A DNA stretch of 43,043 nt. It comes from a virus. The stretch lies in UHGV virus genome UHGV-1376855. The stretch is one strand, 5' to 3'. Made by a program: the position numbers and the translations under genes. The notes under the pieces were generated by a model. The model saw only the letters and a program-made list of their open reading frames with translations. It was not told where the DNA came from and did no database searches. The stretch's first letter is position 1, and each line of letters begins with the position of its first letter. This document shows positions 200-31,612 of the stretch, in pieces.

Positions 200-830
200 T
201 GCACAACACCTCATTAAACTTTTCTGTAAACGCTCGTACCCTCACGATATTCCCCATGCACTCATCTGGCACATAACCATAAAAGATAATCGTGTCCGGG
301 CAAATGCGCCGTACCATTTCCTTGTAGCCTATCAGAAACAACTCTTTCTTTTCTTTGCTGTTCATCACGCCTAAAGACGATACCGCCACAACACCACCCT
401 GTGGCTCTCCGTCAAAGCACCATTCAAAGCTGTCGGGCGTACTCCATGAAATCGTGGGAATAACTTGTATCCCTGCCTCTTGCAGATATGCGCCTACCCA
501 ATGTTTTCTATAATGATTGTATATCTGGATAGCTTTTGGAAAGTCTGTGTAGGTGGAAAAGTCTGGAGACATTACATAACGGAATTTTTGTAACATGGGT
601 ATATATCGGTCAACATCCGTCCATAACCTATTGAATTGGTAATCATCAAGGAAGAAATGTACACCTTTCTTTTCAGGCTCTTTACAAGTCTTGGCATAGT
701 TGAAACCAATCCATTCACAGCTTTTCTCGTAGGTTACTGGTTCTATCTGCGGTATTCCGTATTTTCCCACGCCGTCAAATATCTGGCGCTCCAGATTTTC
801 ATAATTTCTGCGGTTTCGGTAGTTACTCAT
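189..830 (-). CDS. hypothetical protein, DUF4417-like (tentative)
   Basis: 213-aa ORF in the six-frame track; recalled similarity to a conserved Firmicutes/phage family with an FLDDYQF.RLW motif. Confidence 0.45.
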   Translation of the reverse strand: MSNYRNRRNYENLERQIFDGVGKYGIPQIEPVTYEKSCEWIGFNYAKTCKEPEKKGVHFFLDDYQFNRLWTDVDRYIPMLQKFRYVMSPDFSTYTDFPKAIQIYNHYRKHWVGAYLQEAGIQVIPTISWSTPDSFEWCFDGEPQGGVVAVSSLGVMNSKEKKELFLIGYKEMVRRICPDTIIFYGYVPDECMGNIVRVRAFTEKFNEVLCNGW

Positions 831-1090
831 TTCTTAGCCTGCTTATACATCTGGTTAACTCCCGTAGCCGTAAGGCCAGACATAGCTCCAACTGCTACGG
901 CCGTGATGTAGTCCGATGCCGGGAAGTCTGGTATAGTTCCCATACCAAGCGCGCCAAGAACACCACCCACAACAGCCATAATAACCGGAATCCATTCGTC
1001 CGGTATTTTCTTTGCAGCCTTGCATCCAAGACCAACCACATAGCTCAGAGCCACAATAGCTACACATGTTCCCAATGTTGTAATGTCCAT
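827..1090 (-). CDS. small membrane protein, putative holin
   Basis: 87 aa with 2-3 predicted TM helices and a charged C-terminus (KQAKK); ATGA-type overlap with the downstream gene. Confidence 0.4.
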   Translation of the reverse strand: MDITTLGTCVAIVALSYVVGLGCKAAKKIPDEWIPVIMAVVGGVLGALGMGTIPDFPASDYITAVAVGAMSGLTATGVNQMYKQAKK

Positions 1091-1108: not shown

Positions 1109-1459
1109 TCAGAGCAAACCCAATTCCATGAATACTTTGAAAATCTTCGGAGACTGAATAGCGAACCAGTCAATCATTTCTTCATTAGTTGCCCATGCTC
1201 CGCATGTATTTGAACTTGAAGAATCCAGACCGCTTTCATACAAAAACGCATGGATGAGTTCATGCCGTAATATGGCATTTTTATATCCTTCATAGTCCTT
1301 TAATTCGCAATCGTCCTTTTTATTGCAAATCACAATCATATGTGTAGAAAAATCGGTATATCCATCCCTAAATTTCCCATCCAGGTTTTCATCCGATTTT
1401 TCATCACGCTGGACAACTTCCCATTCCGTTCCCAGAATGTTTACTTTACAATCCTGCAT
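1109..1459 (-). CDS. small HExxH-motif protein (putative Zn metallopeptidase-like)
   Basis: 116 aa containing HELIHAF (HExxH) followed by an acidic residue; no other recognisable domain. Confidence 0.45.
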   Translation of the reverse strand: MQDCKVNILGTEWEVVQRDEKSDENLDGKFRDGYTDFSTHMIVICNKKDDCELKDYEGYKNAILRHELIHAFLYESGLDSSSSNTCGAWATNEEMIDWFAIQSPKIFKVFMELGLL

Positions 1460-1957: not shown

Positions 1958-3130
1958 TTAAGAGTGAGACGTTACATCGTCATTTCCAGATTTCAACGCC
2001 TTATAGGTATTGTCACACTCAACTACTGTGATATGATTCCCGGTCGTTGCCTTGATATCAGATTTACCGTCCCATGCTGTCCACGTCTTTACATTCTGAC
2101 CATATTTCACTTCTGGAGCGGAATCAGCTGCCACTTTGTACTTGTACATGTGTCCTGTTTCGAGGGGAGGTTCAACGGTTAATTTTGTGTTTCCTGATGT
2201 GCTTCCGGCCGAAGAAGTTACCGTCAGTGTTCCAAGAACGGGATTATCAGTAATATCAACAACTGCGATTCCGTCAATATATTCTGCAAACAAGGTAAGT
2301 CCCATGATTGCAAATGCTTCGGAAACAGCGGTATTGTAATTACCCTGGGTATGGAATCCGATAAGGTTTGTATCCCCGTCCCCAGTCGTATACACCAGAC
2401 CGGCACGTGCAAAATCACTTTCGTTTGGGTCTACATAGTACATTACAATGTTTTCCACTGGTGTAGCTATTACTTTTCCACTTTCTATTTCAGAATCAGA
2501 TAGCAGAAAGATTGTATTGAATCCCATGAAATCCTTAAGATACTGGAAACCAAACTGATTCTGCACAGTGATTTCAGCGGAACCCAGGTACTGATATACA
2601 TCCAGAATATTCACAAATCCAACCACCCCCGTAACATTACGGTGCATCTGTTTGAATTTGTTTTCTACCATTCCTTTTGCCATAGCAAGGGCCATCTGGA
2701 ATGTAGTTTCCGTTCCAGTAAGTGTACCAGTATTCAGATATGTATAGAATCGTTCTGTTACATTCGACTGAAGCTGGAACAAAAATTCATCGTCTGTCAT
2801 CTGAACGGCATTTTCATAGCCGTGGTCTTTAATTGCTTCAATGGAAACGGCCTTTGCATACTTCTCAATGGTCATTTCCGCATACGTCTTTTCCTTTACT
2901 GTGAATTTGCTGTAAGGGATTTCCTCTCCTTCGCCTACAGCCCCGCTCTGTAAAGTTCCTTCTGCATATTTGCTTTTCAGCACTGCCCCCGGCGTTTTCT
3001 TGATTGGGCGCATAATCCCCAGAATGTCCCGAAGATGCTGCCAGTTCCTTTCAAAGCGTGTCACAAAATCAATTTCACGCGCTGTAACCTGTATGTCCGC
3101 GCTTTTGATTATATTGGCTTTTGCTACCAT
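1958..3130 (-). CDS. major capsid protein (HK97-fold) with C-terminal Ig-like (Big_2-like) domain
   Basis: 390 aa following the scaffold gene; capsid-like body of ~300 aa; last ~90 aa TKLTVEPP...YKYKV...WTAW...ITVVEC resembles bacterial Ig-like domains. Confidence 0.75.
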   Translation of the reverse strand: MVAKANIIKSADIQVTAREIDFVTRFERNWQHLRDILGIMRPIKKTPGAVLKSKYAEGTLQSGAVGEGEEIPYSKFTVKEKTYAEMTIEKYAKAVSIEAIKDHGYENAVQMTDDEFLFQLQSNVTERFYTYLNTGTLTGTETTFQMALAMAKGMVENKFKQMHRNVTGVVGFVNILDVYQYLGSAEITVQNQFGFQYLKDFMGFNTIFLLSDSEIESGKVIATPVENIVMYYVDPNESDFARAGLVYTTGDGDTNLIGFHTQGNYNTAVSEAFAIMGLTLFAEYIDGIAVVDITDNPVLGTLTVTSSAGSTSGNTKLTVEPPLETGHMYKYKVAADSAPEVKYGQNVKTWTAWDGKSDIKATTGNHITVVECDNTYKALKSGNDDVTSHS

Positions 3131-3753: not shown

Positions 3754-3944
3754 TGATGATTCTCCTTTTCCGTTATTAGGTTATTTGTAGGTGTGTAACC
3801 GTCCACCAACGGTTGCCATTTTGTAGGACTTGGCGTGTCCTAAAACGCACATGCCGGAAATTGCATCCGCTTTTCAACTTCCAGGCTGTTCACGTTATGC
3901 GCTAGAACCTGTTTCTTTTAAGGACATGTGCTATAGGAGGGAGG

Positions 3945-4051: not shown

Positions 4052-4270
4052 TTATGTTGCAGGTGATAAACCACTTTTATCTAAATCACTTGCTTTACCT
4101 TTTGCAATATTCATTACGGATGTATTCTTACATACAGGGCAAAATACTGGAAGGTTTTTCGCTACTGTATCAGGCCGGATTTTAGTCCGAGTTTTATTGT
4201 TACATATAGGGCAGTACACCCAACCGTCTTTTACCATGTTTTCACCCTTTCTGCTTATTCCTACTCCCAT
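4052..4270 (-). CDS. cysteine-rich KTR zinc-ribbon protein
   Basis: YCPICNNKTRTKIR...FCPVCKN matches the Cys-rich KTR motif. Confidence 0.5.
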   Translation of the reverse strand: MGVGISRKGENMVKDGWVYCPICNNKTRTKIRPDTVAKNLPVFCPVCKNTSVMNIAKGKASDLDKSGLSPAT

Positions 4271-4342
4271 TTTACCTTATTCAAAAAAAATAATCGTCCC
4301 CACATTTTTTAAAGGCGGTAGGTTTTACCCACCGCCAATTTA

Positions 4343-4882
4343 TTACATCATATTACGAAGCTTTTCAATATACCTTTTCATGGTTTCTCTTTCTTCCCGG
4401 CAGTCGGCATCTTTGGACATTTCGCCTAATTCTTCTGTCAGTTCGTCCATATGTTCTTCCAAAGCTGCAAGCATACGCCGCTTGCAATCTTCATCTTTCC
4501 CGCCGCTTCTGTAGCTCTGCTTCTGATTCATGTAGTCGTCATAGGCCGGACCGTTCGCACGGCTGTAGTGTTCTCTAACGTAATGTTTTCCACGTGTGCC
4601 GCGATAGGAGCTGTCATTATCATAGTCCTGCGACATTCCATCAGCACGGCTATAACGTCCCATGCTGTCGCGCTTGCGGCGCGCTTCGCTGTATTCTCCA
4701 CCGTCCATTTCGTCCATTACCTGATTGTAGTACTCTTTTTTGCACTTCCAGTACTCCACGTTCTCCATGTCTTTCCACATGTCTATCAGTTTGTATGCGG
4801 TTTCAAGGTTGCTAGTGTTCAGGCCCTTTTCCGCAATCTTATCCAGTTCTTCATGGATATTCTGCATCATCTTATAGCTCAT
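4343..4882 (-). CDS. hypothetical charged Y/R/D-rich protein (spore-coat-like composition)
   Basis: 179-aa ORF with low-complexity SYR/DYD repeats; strong RBS. Confidence 0.45.
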   Translation of the reverse strand: MSYKMMQNIHEELDKIAEKGLNTSNLETAYKLIDMWKDMENVEYWKCKKEYYNQVMDEMDGGEYSEARRKRDSMGRYSRADGMSQDYDNDSSYRGTRGKHYVREHYSRANGPAYDDYMNQKQSYRSGGKDEDCKRRMLAALEEHMDELTEELGEMSKDADCREERETMKRYIEKLRNMM

Positions 4883-4894
4883 AGCATTACCCCC

Positions 4895-5293
4895 TTAACC
4901 TATTCTGCTAACAACAAGGTTAGCGTCTGATACTGTCGCTGCTGTGGCTCCAACGTTTTTTACTGATAGGGTAGCACAACATGGTTTGCACACCCTTACT
5001 TCTACAGTTGCCGCTCCATTGATTGTTGCGCCGGCGGCAACTGTGTTCTGGATTCTTGCACCGGGAATGCCTTCGCCGTCCTGCTGTACTTCAAAAATAA
5101 CGTCACCTGCTGCGGCTGCGGAAAAGTTTCCGTTAAATCCTACGCGGTACAGGCCAGGAAGCAAAACTACCCTACCAGAGAGTGCCTCATGCCTTATGTT
5201 TGGACAATTGCAAGAATATATCCTGTTTGCAGCAAACAGAACGCTTGCATTGACTGCAACAGTCTGTGTCCCAGCAGTTACAAAATCTGCCAT
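4895..5293 (-). CDS. C1q/TNF-like (BclA C-terminal-domain-like) protein
   Basis: 132 aa; the pattern GLYRVGFNGNFSA...V.V.QDG..I.G...NT.AAG resembles exosporium BclA C-terminal-domain beta-sandwich proteins. Confidence 0.45.
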   Translation of the reverse strand: MADFVTAGTQTVAVNASVLFAANRIYSCNCPNIRHEALSGRVVLLPGLYRVGFNGNFSAAAAGDVIFEVQQDGEGIPGARIQNTVAAGATINGAATVEVRVCKPCCATLSVKNVGATAATVSDANLVVSRIG

Positions 5294-5501
5294 AATAAAT
5301 CCTCCTTATATGCACAGAAGGGCAAGCTTATGCCTACCCTTCTGTGTGTGTAATACTACTGTTCAGTAGACATGTCCTTTTCGGACAAGATACGCAATAT
5401 ACGGTTGTTTTGTTCGATAATCTTTTCCATATACTCTCTATTTTGCTGTTGTAATGCTGCTGCATATAAAGCAAGATTATCGTAAAACTGTTCGTTTCGA
5501 G

Positions 5502-6203
5502 TTAGCATCCGCATCCAGCATTGCACCCACAATTAGATGCATATGGATATGGCGCCGGTACTGTATAAGCCGGTACAGGCTGCGGCTGACGAAGCTGGGC
5601 AACGATTGAGTTACCAACCGCATCAATAAAACCATTCTGGGAAGTCTGACTTGCCTGGAACCTAAGTGTCTGATTCTCTGCCTGTAAAGTGGAAATCTTA
5701 TCTTGTGTTAAGAAGTCAAGAATAGCTCTTGTGTTGCTATTGTTATTGTCCAGAATATCTCTGGTTGCAGTCTGAATGGTATTTCTGGTATCACATGACT
5801 GTGTAGCCAGATTGTAGTTTACGCCATCAATTGCACGCTGTGTCTGGCAGCAGCAATCCTGGAGCTGATAGCCCATCTGGCATAAGCTGCGGTCAACACC
5901 GTTGAATCCGCTGGTAATAGTGTTGTTCAGTGCATAGGTGCTGTCACAAATACCCTGCTGGATACCTCTAATTCCGTTTTCTATACCATTTAAAGCAAAG
6001 CCCTCATTGATATCTGCTCTGGTTGCAAGACCCTGGAGTCCCGCGCCATTTGCGCCGTTGCCGCCGAAGCCATTGCCCCAGCCTCCCCCGGCGAAAAGGA
6101 AGAGAACGATAATCCAAATCCAGTCGCCCCACATACCGTCACCATTTCTGTTATTGTTTCCTGTAGCGGCTGCAATGTCCGCTAAAGAGTAACCACTTTC
6201 CAT
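5502..6203 (-). CDS. Gly/Asn-rich membrane protein with a YjcZ-like hydrophobic segment and Cys-rich C-terminus
   Basis: 233 aa; GDWIWIIVLFLFAGGGWGNGFGG, then a C-terminal PYPYASNCGCNAGCGC. Confidence 0.45.
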   Translation of the reverse strand: MESGYSLADIAAATGNNNRNGDGMWGDWIWIIVLFLFAGGGWGNGFGGNGANGAGLQGLATRADINEGFALNGIENGIRGIQQGICDSTYALNNTITSGFNGVDRSLCQMGYQLQDCCCQTQRAIDGVNYNLATQSCDTRNTIQTATRDILDNNNSNTRAILDFLTQDKISTLQAENQTLRFQASQTSQNGFIDAVGNSIVAQLRQPQPVPAYTVPAPYPYASNCGCNAGCGC

Positions 6204-6256
6204 AAATATTTACTCCTTTAAATTTATTTACAAAATCATGCGCATTGATTTATGTA

Positions 6257-6505
6257 CTATTTTTTCATGCCTCCAAGCATCTGCTGAAACTGCTGTGCCA
6301 TCTGCTGGGCTTGGTCTAACTGCTGCTGAGTTATCTGCCCAGACTGTAGCATCTTCTGCACTTCTTCCTGGGGGTTCCCTTTGAAATTGTTCTTAAATTC
6401 CATAAACTTTTGAATCATCTGCATTGGGTTATTTCCGCCTCCCATTCCAGGCATCATGCCACCCATTGGTGAACCGCCGCCCAACATGCTAAATAATGGA
6501 TTCAT
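6257..6505 (-). CDS. small Met/Gly/Gln-rich low-complexity protein
   Basis: 82 aa; GGMMPGMGGGNNPMQM then a Q-rich C-terminus; good RBS AAAGGAG. Confidence 0.45.
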   Translation of the reverse strand: MNPLFSMLGGGSPMGGMMPGMGGGNNPMQMIQKFMEFKNNFKGNPQEEVQKMLQSGQITQQQLDQAQQMAQQFQQMLGGMKK

Positions 6506-6508
6506 ATA

Positions 6509-6979
6509 TTATTTCCCCTTTCCGCTTGGAGCTGTGCTGGATTCTAAAAGGCCGTACAATTCATCATATTTTGCCTTTAAATCCTGATACTCGTTTCTGG
6601 TAACATACTTTTCATCCAGATTTTCAGCCGATGCAGATTCCTTTTTCCGTCCATTAACAATCTCTTTATATTCAAAAGTGCGGAGTGTTGGCATACCTGC
6701 TGCATCTGTTGTTTTAATATAAAAGTACTCATTTTCGCTATCCATCAGTAATATGGATGTGCTTGGCGCTACTAAATACGACTTTGCCCCGGCTTCACCC
6801 TGCACCCATAATATTCCCTGGTTGGTCTGCGGGACCTGTGAAACCTGCGTCTGTTGCGGCATTTGGTATGGTGCCTGTAGCTGCTGCAATCGGTCCATAG
6901 GTGGTTGCATCTGCGGTTGATACGGATATGCATTTGGATATGTATTCAGATAGTTTGGATTGATAAATGGTTGCGGCAT
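6509..6979 (-). CDS. protein with Pro/Gln/Tyr-rich N-terminal low-complexity region
   Basis: 156 aa; N-terminus PQPFINPNYLNTYPNAYPYQPQMQPP; RBS GGAGGGGATATAATG. Confidence 0.45.
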   Translation of the reverse strand: MPQPFINPNYLNTYPNAYPYQPQMQPPMDRLQQLQAPYQMPQQTQVSQVPQTNQGILWVQGEAGAKSYLVAPSTSILLMDSENEYFYIKTTDAAGMPTLRTFEYKEIVNGRKKESASAENLDEKYVTRNEYQDLKAKYDELYGLLESSTAPSGKGK

Positions 6980-7071
6980 TATATCCCCTCCGTTCTTTTA
7001 TAATCCAATTATCCCATAAAAAATAAGCCCTTGACAGGTCGTCAAAGACTTATAAAAGTATCACGCAAGTA

Positions 7072-7272
7072 TCAACATAATCGGATTATTTTGTTGTTTA
7101 CTTTTCTGCTCAATCTCTTTGCTGTGGATACACTTACATTCATTAATTCAGCGCAATACTCCAAAGGATAGTTCTTGGCCCGGTACTCAAACAGTGCCCG
7201 TTCTTCATCCGTAAAGTTACAATATGTACGAAAATAGTTTAGTTCTGGCACTGTAAAGTCATATACCTTCAA
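7072..7272 (-). CDS. small sigma-70 region-4-like HTH protein (putative transcription regulator)
   Basis: 66 aa; FTDEERALFEYR...ELMNVSVSTAKRLSRKVNNKI resembles sigma-70/ECF region 4; TTG start with AGGAG RBS. Confidence 0.45.
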   Translation of the reverse strand: MKVYDFTVPELNYFRTYCNFTDEERALFEYRAKNYPLEYCAELMNVSVSTAKRLSRKVNNKIIRLC

Positions 7273-7283
7273 CGCAACGCTCC

Positions 7284-7577
7284 TTAAATACCTTCTGACA
7301 AATGCTTTATCATAGCTTCTTTGGTTTTTTTTAAACCCTCTATGTTGTTACCGGTTATACGATTATCAATTAATGCTATCATTCCTTGGCATAAAAGAGA
7401 TTGCATATCTCTTATTTCTTTGATAGATTTATAATCATTTTCCACATTTATTTCTAATTTATCCACTCGATTTTTTAGCTTAAATGCCGGATGCAACAAT
7501 TTGTATATTACGGCTCCTGCGCCTCCAAGAGTAATAAGCCAACCGCATACAACCATAATAGAGTTTAATGTTTCCAT
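7284..7577 (-). CDS. membrane protein (single N-terminal TM, coiled C-terminus)
   Basis: 97 aa; TM segment IMVVCGWLITLGGAGAVIYKLL. Confidence 0.4.
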   Translation of the reverse strand: METLNSIMVVCGWLITLGGAGAVIYKLLHPAFKLKNRVDKLEINVENDYKSIKEIRDMQSLLCQGMIALIDNRITGNNIEGLKKTKEAMIKHLSEGI

Positions 7578-7580
7578 AAA

Positions 7581-7970
7581 TTATCGCCTTTCCCAGTAGT
7601 ATATTGGTATTTCTTGACCGCTGTCCCATGTGTCCCAGTAAAATCCATCCACAACCGTTACCACATGACCATCAAGCCCAAGAACAAATACTCCGTTTTG
7701 GTGGTCTGCCGAAAATTCTTCCACGGTATAATCTTCTGGATATTCGTCTGGTATAATGTTTCTCTGAAACCCGTTGCGCCTGAGATATGTCCCCCACACG
7801 CTGTTAGCTGAGGGCATATCTGATTTCTCGCACGCCACCACCATAACGCCAGCAAAGGCGGTTTCCCAATCCTGTCCGGTTGCTTTGCAGATTGCACGTA
7901 TGGCACAGTCGCCTACACGCTGATTACAGACTGGGTTAGGGTTATATGGTTTCCATCTATTCAAATTCAT
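7581..7970 (-). CDS. hypothetical protein, possible Cys/His peptidase-like
   Basis: 129 aa with conserved-looking GDCAIRA...DGHVVTVVDG spacing; tentative. Confidence 0.35.
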   Translation of the reverse strand: MNLNRWKPYNPNPVCNQRVGDCAIRAICKATGQDWETAFAGVMVVACEKSDMPSANSVWGTYLRRNGFQRNIIPDEYPEDYTVEEFSADHQNGVFVLGLDGHVVTVVDGFYWDTWDSGQEIPIYYWERR

Positions 7971-9199
7971 TCCCCTTTCGCATTTTGATACCGTCTCGCC
8001 GCCCCTCTGGCCTTTGCAGCCTGTTCACGGCTCCAGCGGGCAATCTGTAATCTCTCTGACTGAGTTCTAAGGTTATTCTCCTTACAAAACTCGTTATATG
8101 CCTTATACTGCTTGGATAGCAAGTAGGATTTCCGGTCAAGCGCCTGCTGTAGCTCAAACTTTGCCGCCTTGTCCTGGCATTTCTCTACGGCCTCTTGCAG
8201 GCCCATAACCTCGCGCTTGGTCTTGCGGATGCGGCGTTCAAGCGTTCGCTGGCGTTGCTCTTTTTCGTACTGATTTCGATTTTCCTCTGTGTCTATTGGG
8301 TCATACGGATTATTTTCTCCATCACCTGGTCCAAAACTATGCCTACAATTTACTCCGCACAATCCAGTAATATCTCCATATCCTGTAGAGTAATAGAAAT
8401 CCGGGAATCTATGTCCATATTGCGGGAGACTGTAGAATTTTCCTTGCCAAAGTTCATGATTCTCTGGTATCCCCCCAACATTTCTTGCGCCCACATGCGC
8501 CGACACCAGCACAACTTCCCACTTCATTTCTACCATTCTTGCCAGCGTAATTTCCGCCGTAGCCTGTGCTATACCAGTCCGTATCGCTCGTGCTGTAGCT
8601 GTCTCTATCGTGTCATTTCTTATATCTCCAGTATTTTTACTTCTATATTGAACAAGTGTAATACCCCCACTGGTCACATTTTCTACGGCCTCTTTAACTG
8701 CTTGTGTGTAAGATGTTGCTCCACTCATAACTTTGTTATAGGCCATATCGCACTCGTTAATAAATAATCTTTGAGCAGATTGCGCGGTTGTCCTAGTGTA
8801 GTTTTTCCATTCCCCTAATGTTGCCAGGTAATTGCGTTCCATCAGCCGAATAAGGGCCGGGGATTGCGTCAGGGGCATAGGAGACAGGCCGGCGGCCTCG
8901 TATATTCTGTGGTCGTATTCCAGAGCTTTTATCCCGGCCTCCTCCATAGCCGCTTTAATCTCTTTCTCCTGCCTCTTGGTGTACTTGGATAACTCTGCTG
9001 TTATATCCTCCAGCAGATACCCTGCGTCCTGCAATACATGTATTCGCCATCGGTCAGAGGAGGTGAGCAGGTAATCATCGCCGCGGCCTATGCGTATCAT
9101 CATGCGGTCTATTATCTGACGGATAATGTATGTGTGAAGCTGTGAGGCTATTTCTTCGCTTCCTTCTGCGATTCTTGCAAGGTAATCAGGGCTTAACAT
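7967..9199 (-). CDS. minor head / head morphogenesis protein (SPP1 gp7 / Mu F-like)
   Basis: 410 aa directly downstream of portal; family-like central region and a Cys/His-containing C-terminal coiled tail. Confidence 0.75.
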   Translation of the reverse strand: MLSPDYLARIAEGSEEIASQLHTYIIRQIIDRMMIRIGRGDDYLLTSSDRWRIHVLQDAGYLLEDITAELSKYTKRQEKEIKAAMEEAGIKALEYDHRIYEAAGLSPMPLTQSPALIRLMERNYLATLGEWKNYTRTTAQSAQRLFINECDMAYNKVMSGATSYTQAVKEAVENVTSGGITLVQYRSKNTGDIRNDTIETATARAIRTGIAQATAEITLARMVEMKWEVVLVSAHVGARNVGGIPENHELWQGKFYSLPQYGHRFPDFYYSTGYGDITGLCGVNCRHSFGPGDGENNPYDPIDTEENRNQYEKEQRQRTLERRIRKTKREVMGLQEAVEKCQDKAAKFELQQALDRKSYLLSKQYKAYNEFCKENNLRTQSERLQIARWSREQAAKARGAARRYQNAKGE

Positions 9200-9305: not shown

Positions 9306-10733
9306 TTATTCCTCCTCAAACATCCTAGGTCCATCCTTCGGCTGTGCTTCCTTTACCATAGCTTTTGCATCTTCTTCAGATAATCCTTCAAACTTTCTAA
9401 AATACATCCAGGCCGGTACCTTTCCCTGTATAACATACTGCCACCATCTTGCCCGGTCCTCTTCGCGGTTATATGTAATGTCCCCAAAATCATATGTTAT
9501 TTCGTAGTTTCCGGCTGGTGCCATTCCGTACAGGTCCGCATATACATTAAGCGCATATATTGCCCCGTCAAGGCAACTTTCCAATTTGTCGCGCACATCC
9601 TTGATTAACTGGATAGTGCGGCGGTCATCAGCTTCTACTTGTGTTGCTGTGACCATACCTGTTTTTTCATCAAGCACAAAATATCCGTTGGAATATCCAC
9701 ACTTAAATCCCAGGAAAGAAAGTAAGTTATTAATTCCGGTTATTCTGGTATCAGTATTTAATGATGGATTAATCTCATGGTAAAATTCCCCATTACTATT
9801 TCCAAATACATTTCTTACATAATGTGGTAATTTAACTTTATTTACTCCTGGACGTTTTAAATTAGTTCCATCACCAAGCATTAATTGGTCATCAATTAAT
9901 ATGATTTTCTCACTGTCAAATATTTCACCTACATTCCGGCTATATGCCACATCCAGGTCCTTTAATTCCTCTATGGCCTCGGCAAACATTGGCAATCCCA
10001 AAGGTGATGAGATATCCAAATTGTTAGCCTGTGGAGTGCGGAGTACACCAAACATGGGGCCGTCTATTTTATCATTGTTAGCCTTGAGTATAGGCGGTGT
10101 ATCTGGAAGTAAGTCAGACCACTTAGTCCTGTTTAATGCTATCGGGTCACCCACACTTTTTGAAGAGTGGGACACATAGGCTCTATTGGATATGTAATAT
10201 GGGTAATAGGTGTTCTCCCCATCTTTGACTTCGACAAACCGATGATACTCAAATCGGGTATAGTATTTATCATTCTCGCTGTAGCTATCCTTAAATACGA
10301 TTCCGTATATACCTTCATTGTCGCAGTCTGTAATGATAAAATCCATTGGTGTGAATATGTCCAGTCCCTTTCCATTTGGCTTAAGGATGATTGTGCCGTA
10401 GGCCATACCATACTCTACCCAGTGGCGAATCTGGAAATATATCTTATCAATCTGCTCCTGGAGCCATGCCGCCCGCGCGCTCCCATCAATCTGTATTCCA
10501 ATTGCCAGGGTAGCAAGGCGGGCCGTCTCCGAGCATATAGCCTTTGCAAAGTTGATTGTCTTAACGTTATCATCAGCGTTTACCCAATATGGCGTACCCC
10601 GGTAGATATTGGCGCACTCTGTAATCTTGCTTTCCATCTCCGGGGATACCATTGACTCAACATTAAAATCTTCTTCTGCCTGTCGCTTGAATATCATTCC
10701 TATCACCTTTTTAGCCCATGTTATTAGTCCCAT
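9306..10733 (-). CDS. portal protein (SPP1 gp6-like)
   Basis: 475 aa between terL and the minor head gene; portal-like size and sequence. Confidence 0.85.
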   Translation of the reverse strand: MGLITWAKKVIGMIFKRQAEEDFNVESMVSPEMESKITECANIYRGTPYWVNADDNVKTINFAKAICSETARLATLAIGIQIDGSARAAWLQEQIDKIYFQIRHWVEYGMAYGTIILKPNGKGLDIFTPMDFIITDCDNEGIYGIVFKDSYSENDKYYTRFEYHRFVEVKDGENTYYPYYISNRAYVSHSSKSVGDPIALNRTKWSDLLPDTPPILKANNDKIDGPMFGVLRTPQANNLDISSPLGLPMFAEAIEELKDLDVAYSRNVGEIFDSEKIILIDDQLMLGDGTNLKRPGVNKVKLPHYVRNVFGNSNGEFYHEINPSLNTDTRITGINNLLSFLGFKCGYSNGYFVLDEKTGMVTATQVEADDRRTIQLIKDVRDKLESCLDGAIYALNVYADLYGMAPAGNYEITYDFGDITYNREEDRARWWQYVIQGKVPAWMYFRKFEGLSEEDAKAMVKEAQPKDGPRMFEEE

Positions 10734-10737
10734 TTAC

Positions 10738-10926
10738 TCACCTAATTTTTTCTGCTATTTTTTCGCCTATCAAAAACGCAAGATTAAATGCGCCAAAGGT
10801 TAGAAAAAGAAATAGTGTCAACGGCCAGAAGAACAATGGAAGCAAAGAAGGCTTTCCGTTTACTTGCATGGCCCCAGAAACAATAGTGCCAATTAACAAA
10901 TAAATTATAATCAATATATAAATCAT
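10738..10926 (-). CDS. small two-TM membrane protein
   Basis: 62 aa with two hydrophobic helices; RBS GAGGAGAGG; sits between terL and portal. Confidence 0.35.
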   Translation of the reverse strand: MIYILIIIYLLIGTIVSGAMQVNGKPSLLPLFFWPLTLFLFLTFGAFNLAFLIGEKIAEKIR

Positions 10927-12182
10927 GCGCTGTTACCTCTCCTCATTGATAGCGGGCTTGTAGCATAACGGAGAGCATCAATCCAGTGGTCATTTCCGTC
11001 TGGGTAATCCGCTATTACTTCTCCGTTTCCGTCTACCTCATGCTCATACTCTATTATTTCCTTGTATGCTCGTGGCGTGCGGGCCGGGTCTATAACGATT
11101 GTACGGCACTGCAACCACTCAAAGGTATATTTCCTGCTTCCTGGTGTTACAATGGCTTTACGTGCCGGTAAACCAGCGTCACGGAAGTCTATAATGCTTT
11201 CTTCTTCATCCACACCGCAATAGATTGTATAATCATCGTACCCAGCCGTCTGTATATCCTCAGCCATCTTACTATTACGGATTTTACAGCCGCCCATTTC
11301 ATCAAGCAATACAACCAATTCTTTGTTTGGTATGTAAGCGGCCCGGATAAATGCTTTGGGGTCCGGGAACCAGCCCCAGTCTTGCCCCTGATATATGCTT
11401 TGGTATTTCTGGATTTCCTCATCTGTGATTGTCCGTACATCCAGCATATCAAATATATTTGTACCAAGCCCAACCGGCAAGCCTAAATACTCGTGGTTGT
11501 ATGCCCGCTCATTGGTGGCTTTAAGATGTTCGGCGCGCTCAATAAACATTTCCCCCAGCCATTCAACCGGTACAGAACGGTAATCGCTTTTATGCCTATA
11601 CGCGCTATCGTCTGGAGTATTCACATACTGATTAGCCCAGTTGCTTTGACTGATAGGCGGGTTGAAGGATTTAAATACAACAAACTTGCTTCCACCACGC
11701 AACACTGACTGTTCAACAGTCCGTATTTCCTCCGGTCCTGCAAATTCATCCAATTCCTCAAACCACAAATATTTGAAGTATCCCTTACTAGCTTTAATTG
11801 ACTTTGTTTTCTTGGCTTTATCAAGTCCACGGAATATTATCTTTTGCCCTGTCGACTTATAAACGAATCTGTATGGGCTTGTACGGGATTCCCACAAATC
11901 CGTAACGCCTAGCGCGTCTATGGCCCACTGTATCTGTTCAAATACTGATTCTCCGATTGTCACCGCATATTTACGAAACACTACCGCATTGGCCTCTGGG
12001 TCATCCATCATACCCAGTACAATCTCCACAGATATGAAAGAGGACTTCGTGGAACCTCTCCCTCCGTACAGGTCATAATATGTATGCTTTCCGTCCATAA
12101 TATCCCAGTGAACACCATAGAAGGAAGGGGCGATTACATCAGTCAGATTTATTGTTGTCTGGTCTTGGTATGTTGTTGACAA
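10923..12182 (-). CDS. terL: terminase large subunit
   Basis: 419 aa; Walker A-like GGRGSTKS; ATPase then nuclease domain organisation. Confidence 0.9.
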   Translation of the reverse strand: MSTTYQDQTTINLTDVIAPSFYGVHWDIMDGKHTYYDLYGGRGSTKSSFISVEIVLGMMDDPEANAVVFRKYAVTIGESVFEQIQWAIDALGVTDLWESRTSPYRFVYKSTGQKIIFRGLDKAKKTKSIKASKGYFKYLWFEELDEFAGPEEIRTVEQSVLRGGSKFVVFKSFNPPISQSNWANQYVNTPDDSAYRHKSDYRSVPVEWLGEMFIERAEHLKATNERAYNHEYLGLPVGLGTNIFDMLDVRTITDEEIQKYQSIYQGQDWGWFPDPKAFIRAAYIPNKELVVLLDEMGGCKIRNSKMAEDIQTAGYDDYTIYCGVDEEESIIDFRDAGLPARKAIVTPGSRKYTFEWLQCRTIVIDPARTPRAYKEIIEYEHEVDGNGEVIADYPDGNDHWIDALRYATSPLSMRRGNSA

Positions 12183-12537
12183 TGGTAATCCCGCCGCCCT
12201 CCTGCTTCTTGTCTGTATCTATTTTACGCTTTGCCAGTTCCACCGCCGCTTTGGTCCTCTCTGACAAAGGAGCGTCAAGACCGAATTGGTCTTTTACTTC
12301 TCCGCGCATAACCGATGTAAGATATTGCAGTATTTCAGCGGCATCAGCTATGCGGCAATCATCAATCTGTTTCTGTCGCTCAGAGATATATGCAGAAACC
12401 GTAGGCTTCCGTAAGTTTTCACGTCCTATTGCGTCTGCTGTCCGTAAGCTGTAACCAGCCTTTCTCGCAGCTTCTGCCGCATTTCCACATTCTATGTAAT
12501 AATCTGCAAACGCTTTCTGCTTTGGTGTAAGCTCCAC
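12139..12537 (-). CDS. terS: terminase small subunit
   Basis: 132 aa; LTPKQKAFADYYIECGNAAEAARKAGYS is the classic terS N-terminal HTH. Confidence 0.8.
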   Translation of the reverse strand: MELTPKQKAFADYYIECGNAAEAARKAGYSLRTADAIGRENLRKPTVSAYISERQKQIDDCRIADAAEILQYLTSVMRGEVKDQFGLDAPLSERTKAAVELAKRKIDTDKKQEGGGITIVNNIPRPDNNKSD

Positions 12538-16390: not shown

Positions 16391-16678
16391 TCAGTTTTCC
16401 TGTTTTAAAAGATTCTGAATCTCACGGATATGCCGCCGAATATCTCCGGTCTTTTTAGGTCCCAAGTCAACGCACATGTCGTCCACGGCTTCTTGAAGAT
16501 TGGCAGCCATACTTGATAATTCATTTTCTGGATAATACTTTTTTATTGTAACGCTATCTGCTGAGGCATATATTTCCATAGGTGTTCCTTCGTTTATTCC
16601 TAACTTCCTCCTTATTTCCTTCGGCAGCACTATCCGCCCCAAATAGTCCACTCTACGTACAATTCCTGTTCCATTCAT
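16391..16678 (-). CDS. AbrB/SpoVT-family (swapped-hairpin) transcription regulator
   Basis: GIVRRVDYLGRIVLPKEIRRKLGINEGTPMEIY closely matches the AbrB N-terminal DNA-binding domain. Confidence 0.75.
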   Translation of the reverse strand: MNGTGIVRRVDYLGRIVLPKEIRRKLGINEGTPMEIYASADSVTIKKYYPENELSSMAANLQEAVDDMCVDLGPKKTGDIRRHIREIQNLLKQEN

Positions 16679-27715: not shown

Positions 27716-28096
27716 ATGACAACATATGATATAATTTCTGACCTTTGCAAACAACGCGGAATTGCGATTACGGCCTTAGAAAAGGAATTGGGATTTGGAA
27801 GGGGGTATATTGGTAAATTTAAGACCAGAGGCACAAGCCCGACAATAAAAAAACTCCAACAAATAGCTGACTATTTTGGAGTGTCGGTCAATGATTTAAT
27901 GCCCGGAAACGAGAAAGCAGAAGCTGACAGATACTATATCAATCCAGAAACTGCGGCCATAGCACAAGACATTTTCGAGAATAAAGAACTGCGTCTGCTA
28001 TTCGATGCTGCCAGGGATGCAACGGCAGATGATTTGAAAACTACACATGATATGCTTTTAGCTTTGAAAAGAAAGGAACGAGGCAATGTCGATTGA
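27716..28096 (+). CDS. cI-like repressor (HTH_XRE, no peptidase domain)
   Basis: RBS AGGAGG; N-terminal HTH ISDLCKQRGIAITALEKELGFGRGYIGKF; divergent from cro. Confidence 0.7.
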   Translation: MTTYDIISDLCKQRGIAITALEKELGFGRGYIGKFKTRGTSPTIKKLQQIADYFGVSVNDLMPGNEKAEADRYYINPETAAIAQDIFENKELRLLFDAARDATADDLKTTHDMLLALKRKERGNVD

Positions 28097-29250: not shown

Positions 29251-29381
29251 TACATACCCGAAGATATGTACTATAATTCGCACCTATATTGTACCATCTT
29301 CGGGGCGGCTTTGCAAGATATTTGCGGAGCTGTATTTTTTATACCTATTTTTAGGGAAATCAATTGAAGGAGGAAAGAGAA

Positions 29382-30455
29382 ATGACAAAGAAAGCCCCGA
29401 AAAAGAAAAAAGGAGAACTGCCGTCTGGAAATGTCCGAGTGCAAGTGTATCTGTATACAGATGATAAAGGCAAGCGGCATTACAAAAGCTTTGTTGCTCC
29501 ATCACGCAAGGAAGCAAAGGAAATGGCTACTCGATGGAAATTAGATATGAAAGATAAGCCCATAGAGCAATACAATGAACCGGATGAGGACGAGGACGAA
29601 GATATAACAGTGAACCAAGCTATTGAACGTTATTTAAACGTCAAGAAAGGCGTTTTAAGCCCTTCCACGCTTAGAGGGTACACAGGTATGCAAAGACAGT
29701 ATTTCGGCGGAGCATTTGGGCGTAAACGGCTCTCAGAACTAACGAATCCATCTGTACAGATATGGATAAGTGATTTGGCCTCTAAACAACTCTCTCCAAA
29801 GACAGTCCGAAATGCCTATGGCCTGTTATCTGCATCCCTGGAGATGTTTGCACCGGATTTAACTCTAAAAGTTAAACTGCCTCAGAAAAAACGTCCTGAA
29901 TTATATTGCCCCAATGACAATGATATTAAAAAGCTGCTGGAGGCAATCAAAGGTACTGATTTAGAAATAGCTGTTTTACTAGCAGCCTTTGGACCACTCA
30001 GACGCGGAGAGATAAGCGCCCTTACTGATAAAAATGTAGAGGGTCGTATTATCCATGTAAGAGACAATATGGTCAAGGGGCCAGACAATCAATGGTACAT
30101 CAAACAGCCTAAAACGGATGATAGTACAAGGGATGTAGAAATGCCCGCATTTGTAATTGACCGGATATCTGAAAAAAAAGGAAAGTTGCTTGATATGAAC
30201 CCGGATTACATCACACACCGATTCGGACGAGTACTCAAAAAGATTGATATACCCCATTTCCGCTTTCACGACCTCCGGCATTATGCTGCATCCATTATGC
30301 ACGCCATAGGCATACCGGACCAATATATTTTGCAGCGGGGAGGATGGGCCAGCGACAATATCATGAAAGCAGTATACAGAAATGTAATTGACTTGGAAAG
30401 CGTCCGGCAGAATAAAAAAATTAATAAGCACTTTGAAAAATTAAACAGCATGTAA
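29382..30455 (+). CDS. int: tyrosine integrase (site-specific recombinase)
   Basis: RBS GAAGGAGG; C-terminal catalytic region HDLRHYAASI...GGW with conserved R/H/Y; arm sites and attP downstream. Confidence 0.9.
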   Translation: MTKKAPKKKKGELPSGNVRVQVYLYTDDKGKRHYKSFVAPSRKEAKEMATRWKLDMKDKPIEQYNEPDEDEDEDITVNQAIERYLNVKKGVLSPSTLRGYTGMQRQYFGGAFGRKRLSELTNPSVQIWISDLASKQLSPKTVRNAYGLLSASLEMFAPDLTLKVKLPQKKRPELYCPNDNDIKKLLEAIKGTDLEIAVLLAAFGPLRRGEISALTDKNVEGRIIHVRDNMVKGPDNQWYIKQPKTDDSTRDVEMPAFVIDRISEKKGKLLDMNPDYITHRFGRVLKKIDIPHFRFHDLRHYAASIMHAIGIPDQYILQRGGWASDNIMKAVYRNVIDLESVRQNKKINKHFEKLNSM

Positions 30456-30743: not shown

Positions 30744-31484
30744 TTATATTGAGTTAGAATCCTCTATGTACCAGATTTCCAGCGCCCCATTATCCTGACT
30801 ATGCCAGCAGGCTCCCTCAAACGGTCCGTTTGGTGTCGGGTCAAAGTAATACCAATCTCCCGAACCGTCAACCGGGTCACATGTGCTGCCATTCCAGCGG
30901 TGCCAGCTCGTGCAAGCATAACCATCCTTATTAAATAAGTACCAATGGTGATTTATGATACACCACTTATTAGCCGGGTAAGTTCCATCTGGTCTGCGGT
31001 ACCACCAGCCGTTATTGTCCTTAATCCAGCCAGTGCGTTCCTCTGTCACCCAGGTTTTCATAAATTCATCCGGTGTACGGTAAAGCTTTTTAATTCCAGA
31101 TGTGCTGCTCCCCCAATCTGGAAGCTGAAAATGTGGCTTGTCCATAATGGATTTCCAATTTCCTCCCCACTCCAGGCCAAGAGATACACCAATAGCACCT
31201 ACACGGTTAAAAAAACCATCAGATTCGTTGTAAGCTCCGGTCCCATCATTGCGAAAGATATCAAAAGCAGTCCCCCACTGATGATAGGAGCTATAGCTGC
31301 TACCGGGCGCATTAGTTACAATGTTGCCCGGTTTAGTCCTGCCCTGGGCATATAAATCATCCTGCTCTGCTACAGTACGCAGAGTTTCGCCTATCTTAAT
31401 TTTTAATCCCTGTTTATTACATTCATCCACCAATTGACCTGCTAAAAGCTGCAAACGTGGATGGCACAATGTGATATCTCTCAT
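30744..31484 (-). CDS. endolysin: M15 (VanY-like) peptidase domain plus C-terminal cell-wall-binding repeats
   Basis: SYHQWGTAFDI (SxHxxGxAxD) motif; C-terminal GW/WYYF-type repeats; start at MRDITL with GGAGG RBS. Confidence 0.8.
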   Translation of the reverse strand: MRDITLCHPRLQLLAGQLVDECNKQGLKIKIGETLRTVAEQDDLYAQGRTKPGNIVTNAPGSSYSSYHQWGTAFDIFRNDGTGAYNESDGFFNRVGAIGVSLGLEWGGNWKSIMDKPHFQLPDWGSSTSGIKKLYRTPDEFMKTWVTEERTGWIKDNNGWWYRRPDGTYPANKWCIINHHWYLFNKDGYACTSWHRWNGSTCDPVDGSGDWYYFDPTPNGPFEGACWHSQDNGALEIWYIEDSNSI

Positions 31485-31486
31485 AA

Positions 31487-31612
31487 TCATCCTCCAATTA
31501 TGCTGTTCTTCTGTTGCTCTGTAATCCATCCAAGTAATACAGCCCGGTTAAGCTCATCAATAGTTAATGGACCTTTACCATTGTTATATAATCTTTTTAA
31601 CGTTGTATACAT
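31487..31612 (-). CDS. XkdX-family small protein (41 aa)
   Basis: ...YNNGKGPLTIDELNRAVLLGWITEQQKNSIIGG matches the XkdX pattern; strong RBS GGAGGTG; coordinates approximate. Confidence 0.4.
   Translation of the reverse strand: MYTTLKRLYNNGKGPLTIDELNRAVLLGWITEQQKNSIIGG

Follow-up and report, generated by a model that had tools for sequence, protein, structure and literature searches.

A probable accessory operon encoding a BclA/ExsF-like jelly-roll protein recurs among siphophages of gut Clostridia

Phage morons are extra transcription units that carry their own promoter and terminator and are inserted between conserved phage genes. Sporulation genes borne by gut phages have been catalogued by Schwartz et al. 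(2023, PMC10294663), whose list of regulators (sigma factors, spo0A, spoVT, abrB), DNA-handling genes and cell-wall hydrolases includes nothing from the coat or exosporium. On the spore surface itself, BclA proteins have been described with an exosporium leader and a collagen stalk (PMC12357932). Here we analyse a gene cluster of virus genome UHGV-1376855, a stretch of 43,043 nucleotides that we call the window and that represents the ~43-kb genome of a temperate siphophage with genes mostly on the minus strand. Between its minor head and scaffold genes lie nine or ten open reading frames (ORFs). A preliminary description of positions 4052–7272 had proposed that they are spore-surface-like cargo expressed during host sporulation, or else exosporium-like decorations of the capsid. 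We find that they include a cassette that is very likely an autonomous accessory ('moron'-type) operon, one exchanged horizontally between mostly temperate siphophages whose hosts are gut Clostridia and some Bacilli.

Genomic loci were fetched through the signature protein of the cassette, the membrane protein P233, giving 80 loci in which every ORF was clustered; counts based on the core proteins cover 81 loci. Synteny is kept in all 81. The order runs from a small transmembrane (TM) protein (c10, or p97 in the window) through a helix-turn-helix (HTH) protein resembling sigma-70 region 4 (sig66 or c12), the papain-fold peptidase C129, the Pro/Gln-rich protein PQ156, MGQ82 (or c6) and P233 to the jelly-roll protein B132 (or a Cys-rich beta protein, c7) and finally R179 (or c9, a low-complexity region joined to DUF7841). 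The unit spans six to nine genes. In the window C129 is the first of them, ahead of p97 and sig66, and in some loci it has shifted to the 3′ end. A ~105-residue helical protein (c13), a DUF7841 protein or a small HExxH metallopeptidase often follows 3′ of the cassette. The flanking genes vary from locus to locus, and three types of site recur: between the min_cap2 and scaffold genes, as in the window's lineage; past the holin and amidase genes, with host genes or an integrase gene of serine or tyrosine type next (loci L082–84 and L093–94); and directly after genes for a GerE-type HTH protein, Xis and integrase (L091–92). At all of them the cassette is co-directional with the late genes, and it often adjoins XhlA-like, holin and endolysin genes. 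Its GC content (0.44–0.45) equals that of the flanks, so a foreign signature was not seen and a recent foreign origin, judged by composition, was rejected.

Hosts named in the locus records are mainly Lachnospiraceae, Oscillospiraceae, Acutalibacteraceae and Ruminococcus; others are Faecalibacterium, Subdoligranulum, Agathobaculum, Christensenellales and Erysipelotrichaceae/'Bacilli', with one Mycoplasmataceae bin and two Bacteroidota bins. Complete, divergent cassettes on Bacteroidota-binned contigs, namely a 557-kb scaffold of a Prevotella sp. metagenome-assembled genome (L068) and a Bacteroidaceae assembly of the same kind (L065), either result from mis-binning or show that hosts extend past Bacillota. 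Among cultured phages, we found the full cassette in Butyrivibrio virus Ceridwen (L088) and in no other. Its cassette genes, annotated as hypothetical, stand after the endolysin gene and before the early genes in the order c10, c12-type HTH, terminator, C129, PQ156, MGQ, P233, B132, an HNH-like insertion, R179 and c13. The inserted gene (11451–12245 of Ceridwen) encodes 264 residues that look HNH/AP2-like on sequence inspection, and in L082–84 a reverse-strand gene of 223 residues splits the cassette between MGQ and P233; the cassette thus tolerates insertions at hairpin-bearing spacers. GBK2, Lak phages and Tsamsa-like Bacillus phages have a solitary C129 homologue; GBK2 and Tsamsa, with the peptidase gene and no more of the cassette, were rejected as further cultured carriers.

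Close relatives of the window were fetched through the minor head protein (72, at 64–99% identity), and 56 of them hold both flanking head genes. The whole cassette is present in 52 of the 56. A synteny comparison with relatives lacking the insert, as the preliminary description had suggested, yielded an empty site and three internal deletions. At the empty site (L104) the KTR gene, which encodes a Cys-rich zinc ribbon, is left by itself within a 499-bp gap. In L134 the first 67 residues of PQ156 are joined in frame to the last 57 of R179 (2328–2702), which removes MGQ82, P233 and B132. With its head genes intact, L134 is a natural, ready-made deletion mutant in which three core genes are gone. 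L124 and L161 have undergone other partial losses. The cassette is dispensable and mobile and therefore supports the cargo half of the earlier interpretation: a cargo-type insert between the minor head and scaffold genes with a region-4-type HTH gene ahead of it, whose position shifts and which some relatives lack. Since it occupies several unrelated positions, carries its own signals and is absent from relatives of the same phage, it is not capsid-assembly machinery.

One alternative is a dispensable virion accessory. B132 and its partners could be head or neck decorations, or fibres, that aid particle stability or adhesion, and fibres of this sort have precedent: the lactococcal NPS collar-whisker is a known dispensable fibre. 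Such a role would suit the invariable co-direction with late genes, the place of the cassette inside the head gene cluster in the window's lineage, its retention in a phage known from the lytic cycle only and the cytoplasmic assembly, free of signal peptides, that virion proteins share. We nevertheless judge it unlikely. The same cassette travels with unrelated head and tail modules and is often found past the lysis genes, next to the integrase; it has a regulator and promoter and terminator signals of its own; P233, its universal member, is a membrane protein by its predicted TM helix; three members are of low complexity; and none of the records annotates a homologue as structural. Its association with unrelated head modules, its frequent place beyond the lysis genes, its membrane protein and its dispensability likewise speak against the capsid decoration envisaged in the preliminary description.

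Table 1. Coordinates of the cassette, its candidate signals and other features of the window.
Feature	Position	Strand	Assignment and support
C129	7581..7970	-	Papain-fold cysteine peptidase, 129 aa
p97	7284..7577	-	N-terminal TM helix and coiled coil; no family match
sig66	7072..7272	-	66-aa sigma-70 region-4/LuxR-type HTH
Intrinsic-terminator-like hairpin	7023..7053	-	Directly 3′ of sig66 gene; 14-pair stem then TTTTTT
Promoter-like site	7008..7037	-	Sigma-A-type, extended -10 (TGGGATAAT); CTGTCA-18-GATAAT with TG
PQ156	6509..6979	-	phrog_21718, 9.4e-48
MGQ82	6257..6505	-	phrog_22984, 3.2e-22; variant c6 in slot elsewhere
Dyad-symmetric element	6226..6257	-	GTACATAAATCAATGCGCATGATTTTGTAAAT then A/T box; between MGQ82 and P233 genes
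P233	5502..6203	-	phrog_16490, 4.9e-61
p58	5356..5532	-	58-aa ORF in spacer between P233 and B132 genes
Hairpin	5315..5344	-	CAGAAGGGTAGGCATAAGCTTGCCCTTCTG; just 5′ of B132 gene
B132	4895..5293	-	Stand-alone BclA_C / TNF-C1q-like jelly roll
R179	4343..4882	-	phrog_28802, 1.3e-70
Hairpin	4314..4336	-	GGCGGTGGGTAAAACCTACCGCC then TTT; 3′ of R179 stop codon, read from sequence
Cys_rich_KTR zinc ribbon	4052..4270	-	PF14205, 1.2e-18, 67.1 bits (cut-off 25.5)
RAGATH-21 RNA	3846-3932	-	Rfam, 80.4 bits (threshold 70.3)
GP20-b cis-regulatory motif	3777-3840	-	Rfam, 42.9 bits (threshold 36.2)
Scaffold, Phage_scaffold PF06810	3130-3753		Pfam, 5.9e-27
Major capsid protein	1958-3130	-	Pfam
p116, small HExxH metallopeptidase	1109..1459	-	Outside the window cassette
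Hol44-type holin	827-1090	-	
Minor head, Phage_min_cap2	7967-9199		Pfam, 5.5e-71
Portal	9306-10733		
TerL	10923-12182		
SpoVT/AbrB-type ORF	16391-16678	-	PF04014 (MazE_antitoxin, SpoVT/AbrB-type fold), 1.1e-9
CI-type HTH	27716-28096		
Tyrosine integrase	29364-30455		
M15/choline-binding endolysin	30744-31529	-	

Comparison across loci redraws the limits of the cluster. All ORFs of the preliminary description were recovered in place on the minus strand, Pfam places both flanking head genes as it had them, and the interval it outlined is a real cluster; at one end it is too narrow, omitting C129 and p97, and at the other it takes in the KTR gene. The zinc-ribbon call for the latter was sound. 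Just 4 of the 81 core-protein loci hold a homologue, and the cassette-free L104 keeps the gene. The KTR gene is thus a neighbour outside the cassette core. By position alone, p97 is inferred to be equivalent to c10, the small TM protein encoded 5′ of the HTH gene elsewhere. The 58-residue ORF p58 is doubtful, because its homologues are confined to the near-identical L002 and L003 and it overlaps the 3′ end of the P233 gene.

The promoter and terminators ascribed to the cassette are sequence signals. The hairpin arrangement 3′ of the sig66 gene recurs in L002, L003, L011, L021, L041 and Ceridwen, and a TGnGAnAAT box similar to that of the promoter-like site, which in the window lies 5′ of the PQ156 gene, follows the hairpin in L001, L010, L013, L017, L021, L027, L041 and L056. 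The hairpin beyond R179, where the unit probably ends, has a short T-run and went uncalled by the terminator scan. Two further elements bracket P233. Dyads with arms of at least 8 occur 5′ of P233 in 32% of loci compared with 4% of shuffles, and 5′ of B132/c7 in 52% compared with 3%; no enrichment was seen 5′ of the other genes. Across L001–L081 their sequences vary and their symmetry is kept, many being perfect palindromes with GC-rich centres (GTGCAC, CGTACG, TGGCCA), and the dyad 5′ of P233 is followed by a TGTAAATAAA/AATATAAA box. RNAalifold, run on a MAFFT alignment of the MGQ–P233 spacer, found no consensus RNA structure, and thermodynamic z-scores for that spacer were modest (mean -1.15); the dyad enrichment is the solid part. 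These dyads may be either RNA stem-loops or protein-binding palindromes.

The likely regulator stands near the head of the unit. As a sigma region-4-like HTH protein, sig66 is weakly matched in the window copy (PF08281, E=0.011, below the cut-off; phrog_1190, 9.5e-6) and clearly at family level, where 13 of the 146 module proteins scanned, 16 HTH proteins included, match TIGR02937 (best 7e-8). Matches of the window copy to sigma profiles cover the last ~45 profile positions only; at 66 residues, and with region 2 absent, sig66 is not a sigma factor. A region-4-type HTH protein, either sig66 or c12, is encoded ahead of the cassette in many loci, and sig66 is probably the cassette regulator.

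C129 has an invariant Cys22/His102/Asp113 triad and the papain fold (clan CA; C39-like). We rejected its assignment to peptidase C39 proper: the C39 hidden Markov model (HMM) is unmatched, no locus contains an ABC transporter as exporter, and a leader-like motif occurs in a minority of P233 proteins. That motif, resembling the 3′ half of a double-glycine leader, is held by 23 of 79 P233 N-termini (~29%); the window N-terminus, YSLADIAAATGN, resembles LSxxELxxIxGG, and other P233 subfamilies begin differently. With so few carriers of the half-motif, the proposal that C129 is a C39 double-glycine leader peptidase that cuts P233 was set aside, and is kept as an idea. The second peptidase, p116, may be a displaced satellite member of the cassette, as its homologues lie directly 3′ of the R179 gene in nine loci. 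In a Pfam scan of 101 proteins from the R179, c9, c7, c13 and p116 families there were four matches to Peptidase_M78 (M78/IrrE-like), five SprT-like matches and four to DUF6782.

P233 itself comprises 233 residues, 13% of them Gly and 11% Asn, with 10 Cys and the C-terminal end NCGCNAGCGC. A short N-terminal motif and an Asn/Gly-rich linker precede one predicted TM helix and a GWGxGFGG motif; then come helical sequence rich in Asn, Gln and Thr, in which a DCCC motif is conserved, and a Cys-rich tail. The most hydrophobic 15-residue stretch lies around residues 29–43, and the conserved cysteines are Cys86, 108, 117–119 and 137 and those of the tail. Homologues number at least 7,995 at 90% clustering and fall into 2,708 clusters at 50% identity (E<=1e-3); all are ~200–300 residues long, unnamed and domain-less. 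No Pfam, NCBIfam or PDB entry matched P233, and the YjcZ model remained unmatched across 41 family members as well, so the YjcZ-like core that the preliminary description saw in this protein is a likeness of composition.

PQ156, MGQ82, P233 and R179 have the compositions first reported, Pro/Gln-rich, Met/Gly/Gln-rich, Gly/Asn-rich and charged-repeat in turn. PQ156 (156 residues; 69 clustered ORFs) has a Pro/Gln/Tyr-rich N-terminus, with 14 Gln and 11 Pro in its first 55 residues, followed by a conserved ~55-residue beta domain, an amphipathic helix and a Lys/Glu-rich tail; it matched nothing in Pfam, where 58 members were scanned, nor in the PDB, nor GerQ. MGQ82 is a helical protein of 82 residues (Gln 20%, Met 16%, Gly 16%). 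The 179 residues of R179 form helical ends around a low-complexity centre rich in Arg, Tyr, Ser, Asp and Gly, with YSR/DYD repeats, and elsewhere a DUF7841 protein replaces or follows it; 18 of the 101 proteins in the mixed scan, 19 of which are c9, matched DUF7841. PQ156, MGQ82, P233 and R179 each match a function-unknown PHROG only, and dozens of members scanned singly gave no match in Pfam, NCBIfam, PADLOC or PDB. The PDB, searched by sequence and by profile with C129, PQ156, P233, B132, DUF7841 and c7, returned nothing meaningful. Homology of the low-complexity proteins to spore-coat families (GerQ, YjcZ, Cot, Cde, exosporium) was rejected after scans of 58 and 101 members against Pfam and 146 against NCBIfam, none of which matched. 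The sporulation-like nature at first attributed to the proteins other than B132 therefore comes down to composition, the YjcZ, GerQ, Cot and exosporium families all being unmatched.

A TM protein, two kinds of peptidase and an HTH protein are also what many defence modules contain, and a prophage moron that works at the membrane in superinfection exclusion, defence or lysis modulation would fit the prophage-end position beside integrase and repressor, the high mobility and dispensability, and the XhlA-like, holin and endolysin genes that frequently adjoin. The chance of this appears slim. PADLOC-DB, scanned with ten proteins, gave no family match at E<=0.1, on which ground a known defence system was rejected; a nuclease, an NTPase or another typical effector is absent; a BclA-like jelly roll next to three structural-type proteins of low complexity would be atypical of a defence system; and the cassette is present in Ceridwen, an apparently virulent phage.

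The one member with a link to spores by fold is B132, for which the preliminary BclA C-terminal-domain/C1q-like call is borne out by family HMM matches and fold relatives. Its 132 residues, five of them Cys, form a globular domain only, a ten-strand jelly roll superposable on the BclA C-terminal domain (CTD), and its nearest structural relatives are F-BclA, BclA and ExsFA, proteins of the exosporium and of endospore appendages. PF18573 (BclA_C) is matched by 10 of 32 family members (best 5e-7), and by the window copy not at E<=1. A few homologues in public virus sets have been named automatically as 'BclA protein'. Conserved cysteines are C28/C30 and C102/C105/C106; the slot is taken elsewhere by c7. 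B132 has neither an exosporium leader nor collagen-like GXY repeats, and so is not a BclA-type exosporium glycoprotein. The F-ENA endospore-appendage set was rejected as a template, since its DUF4183 subunits and collagen-like anchors are absent.

These structural relatives speak for the remaining alternative, in which a sporulating lysogen would express the prophage cassette in its mother cell and the coat or exosporium would take up the proteins. Products free of signal peptides, as mother-cell assembly would have them, and rich in Cys, Tyr, Gly and Gln, the protease, a majority of clostridial hosts, the integrase-side lysogenic-conversion slot that often holds the cassette and the precedent of sporulation genes in gut phages (PMC10294663) all agree with it. 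The distribution does not. Ceridwen, for which only a lytic cycle has been observed and no integrase reported (PMC7372960), and whose host genus Butyrivibrio is non-spore-forming (PMC6249431), has a complete cassette. Loci also come from Faecalibacterium, Subdoligranulum, Agathobaculum, Christensenellales, 'Bacilli'/Mycoplasmataceae and Prevotella/Bacteroidaceae bins, where binning errors are possible. Several of these host groups are asporogenous. Coat, exosporium, YjcZ and GerQ families are unmatched, B132 lacks leader and stalk, the promoter-like site is a sigma-A extended -10 rather than a sigma-E or sigma-K one, and coat genes are missing from the published survey of sporulation genes in phages (PMC10294663). 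We consider spore-surface cargo improbable; the sigma-A-type site, the cassette in a phage of a non-spore-forming genus and the lack of any coat family likewise tell against the sporulation-linked expression proposed at first. The AbrB-type ORF that the preliminary description had added in its favour does have the SpoVT/AbrB–MazE fold, but this generic fold is common to antitoxins and transition-state regulators and so is no evidence on sporulation.

Our leading explanation, an accessory operon whose products assemble, is held tentatively. The adjacent HTH protein would turn the unit on from a vegetative-type, sigma-A-like promoter. The products, no one of which has a recognisable secretion signal, would for that reason assemble in the cytoplasm. 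Single-pass P233, its topology resting on the predicted TM helix, would act as a membrane-anchored scaffold that carries the low-complexity proteins and, probably as a trimer, the BclA/ExsF-like head; the many conserved cysteines of P233 and B132 would stabilise the assembly, and C129 would mature one or more components. Lysis of the cell by the phage could expose or release the structure, which would be a self-assembling layer or fibre of coat or exosporium type that serves in the lytic cycle rather than in sporulation. Candidate attachments are the virion, the cell envelope or debris, and candidate roles are adhesion, protection or exclusion. The assembly part, taken by itself, is possible but doubtful. 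A bolder version is a long shot: the portable operon would build an exosporium-like layer or fibre during lytic growth from a BclA/ExsF-type trimer on a P233-type scaffold, matured by the peptidase, with prion-like and RGG-like low-complexity partners, giving a 'coat' or matrix around virions or cell remnants that protects particles or makes them stick in transit between anaerobic guts.

Several points weigh against an accessory operon with assembling products. The deletion variants come from metagenomic contigs and need not represent viable phages. The promoter-like site matches the consensus at 9 of 12 positions, and such matches are no more frequent in the region than in shuffled sequence. 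The assembly model is drawn from composition, fold and gene order, and low-complexity proteins can resemble one another by chance. Finally, the empty PADLOC 2023 result leaves room for an undescribed defence system.

Some features of the surrounding genome deserve mention in their own right. The Hol44-type holin gene is placed among the head-tail joining genes and adjoins a DUF4417 gene (189–830); around the circular map it is ~12 kb from the endolysin gene, which lies beside the integrase gene, and Dulem virus 35 has the same holin placement. The major capsid protein has an Ig-like S-layer domain, SbsC_C (PF18316, 4.9e-16), placed C-terminally at residues 308–388, and by this match the capsid may own a built-in surface decoration. 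The 300-nt gap between the KTR and scaffold genes contains two Rfam families above their gathering thresholds, RAGATH-21 and GP20-b, the latter directly 5′ of the PF06810 (Phage_GP20) scaffold gene.

The cassette is a sizeable and coherent piece of viral 'dark matter', strictly ordered across phage lineages of human and animal guts, and the P233 family within it is large, with no Pfam domain, no name and no literature found. Its retention in more than 90% of the lineage and its presence in a lytic-only phage suggest a benefit to the phage itself. The BclA/ExsF fold, studied so far on spore surfaces, is also in routine use among phages of non-sporulating hosts, and an exosporium-like coat made by a phage, if real, would be undescribed for tailed phages. 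Cultured carriers exist, Ceridwen with Butyrivibrio fibrisolvens DSM 3071 among the phages, and Enterocloster hominis CLA-SR-H021, Anaerotruncus colihominis DSM 17241, Agathobaculum desmolans ATCC 43058 and Muriventricola aceti among the lysogens. The individual folds are known already; for the cassette as a unit we found no description in the literature, and no papers mentioning DUF7841.

Set beside BclA or F-BclA CTDs and ExsFA (BxpB) of the Bacillus cereus-group exosporium, B132 differs in being phage-encoded, without GXY stalk or leader, and in its conserved Cys pairs; its window copy falls below Pfam detection. C129, compared with peptidase C39 (PCAT/ComA) and with Josephin- and staphopain-type papain folds, is free-standing and has no ABC transporter. 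The cassette resembles phage-borne sporulation genes (Schwartz et al. 2023, PMC10294663) in belonging to gut phages of mostly Bacillota hosts and in the idea of host-development genes, and departs from them in that, the BclA_C fold aside, none of its proteins is homologous to a known sporulation protein. Like lysogenic-conversion cassettes, it often lies between the lysis genes and the integrase. Morons are the nearest match, with which it shares hairpins on both sides, a promoter-like site, variable presence and variable position; unlike typical morons, it is large, at six to nine genes, its order is unusually conserved and it brings its own regulator.

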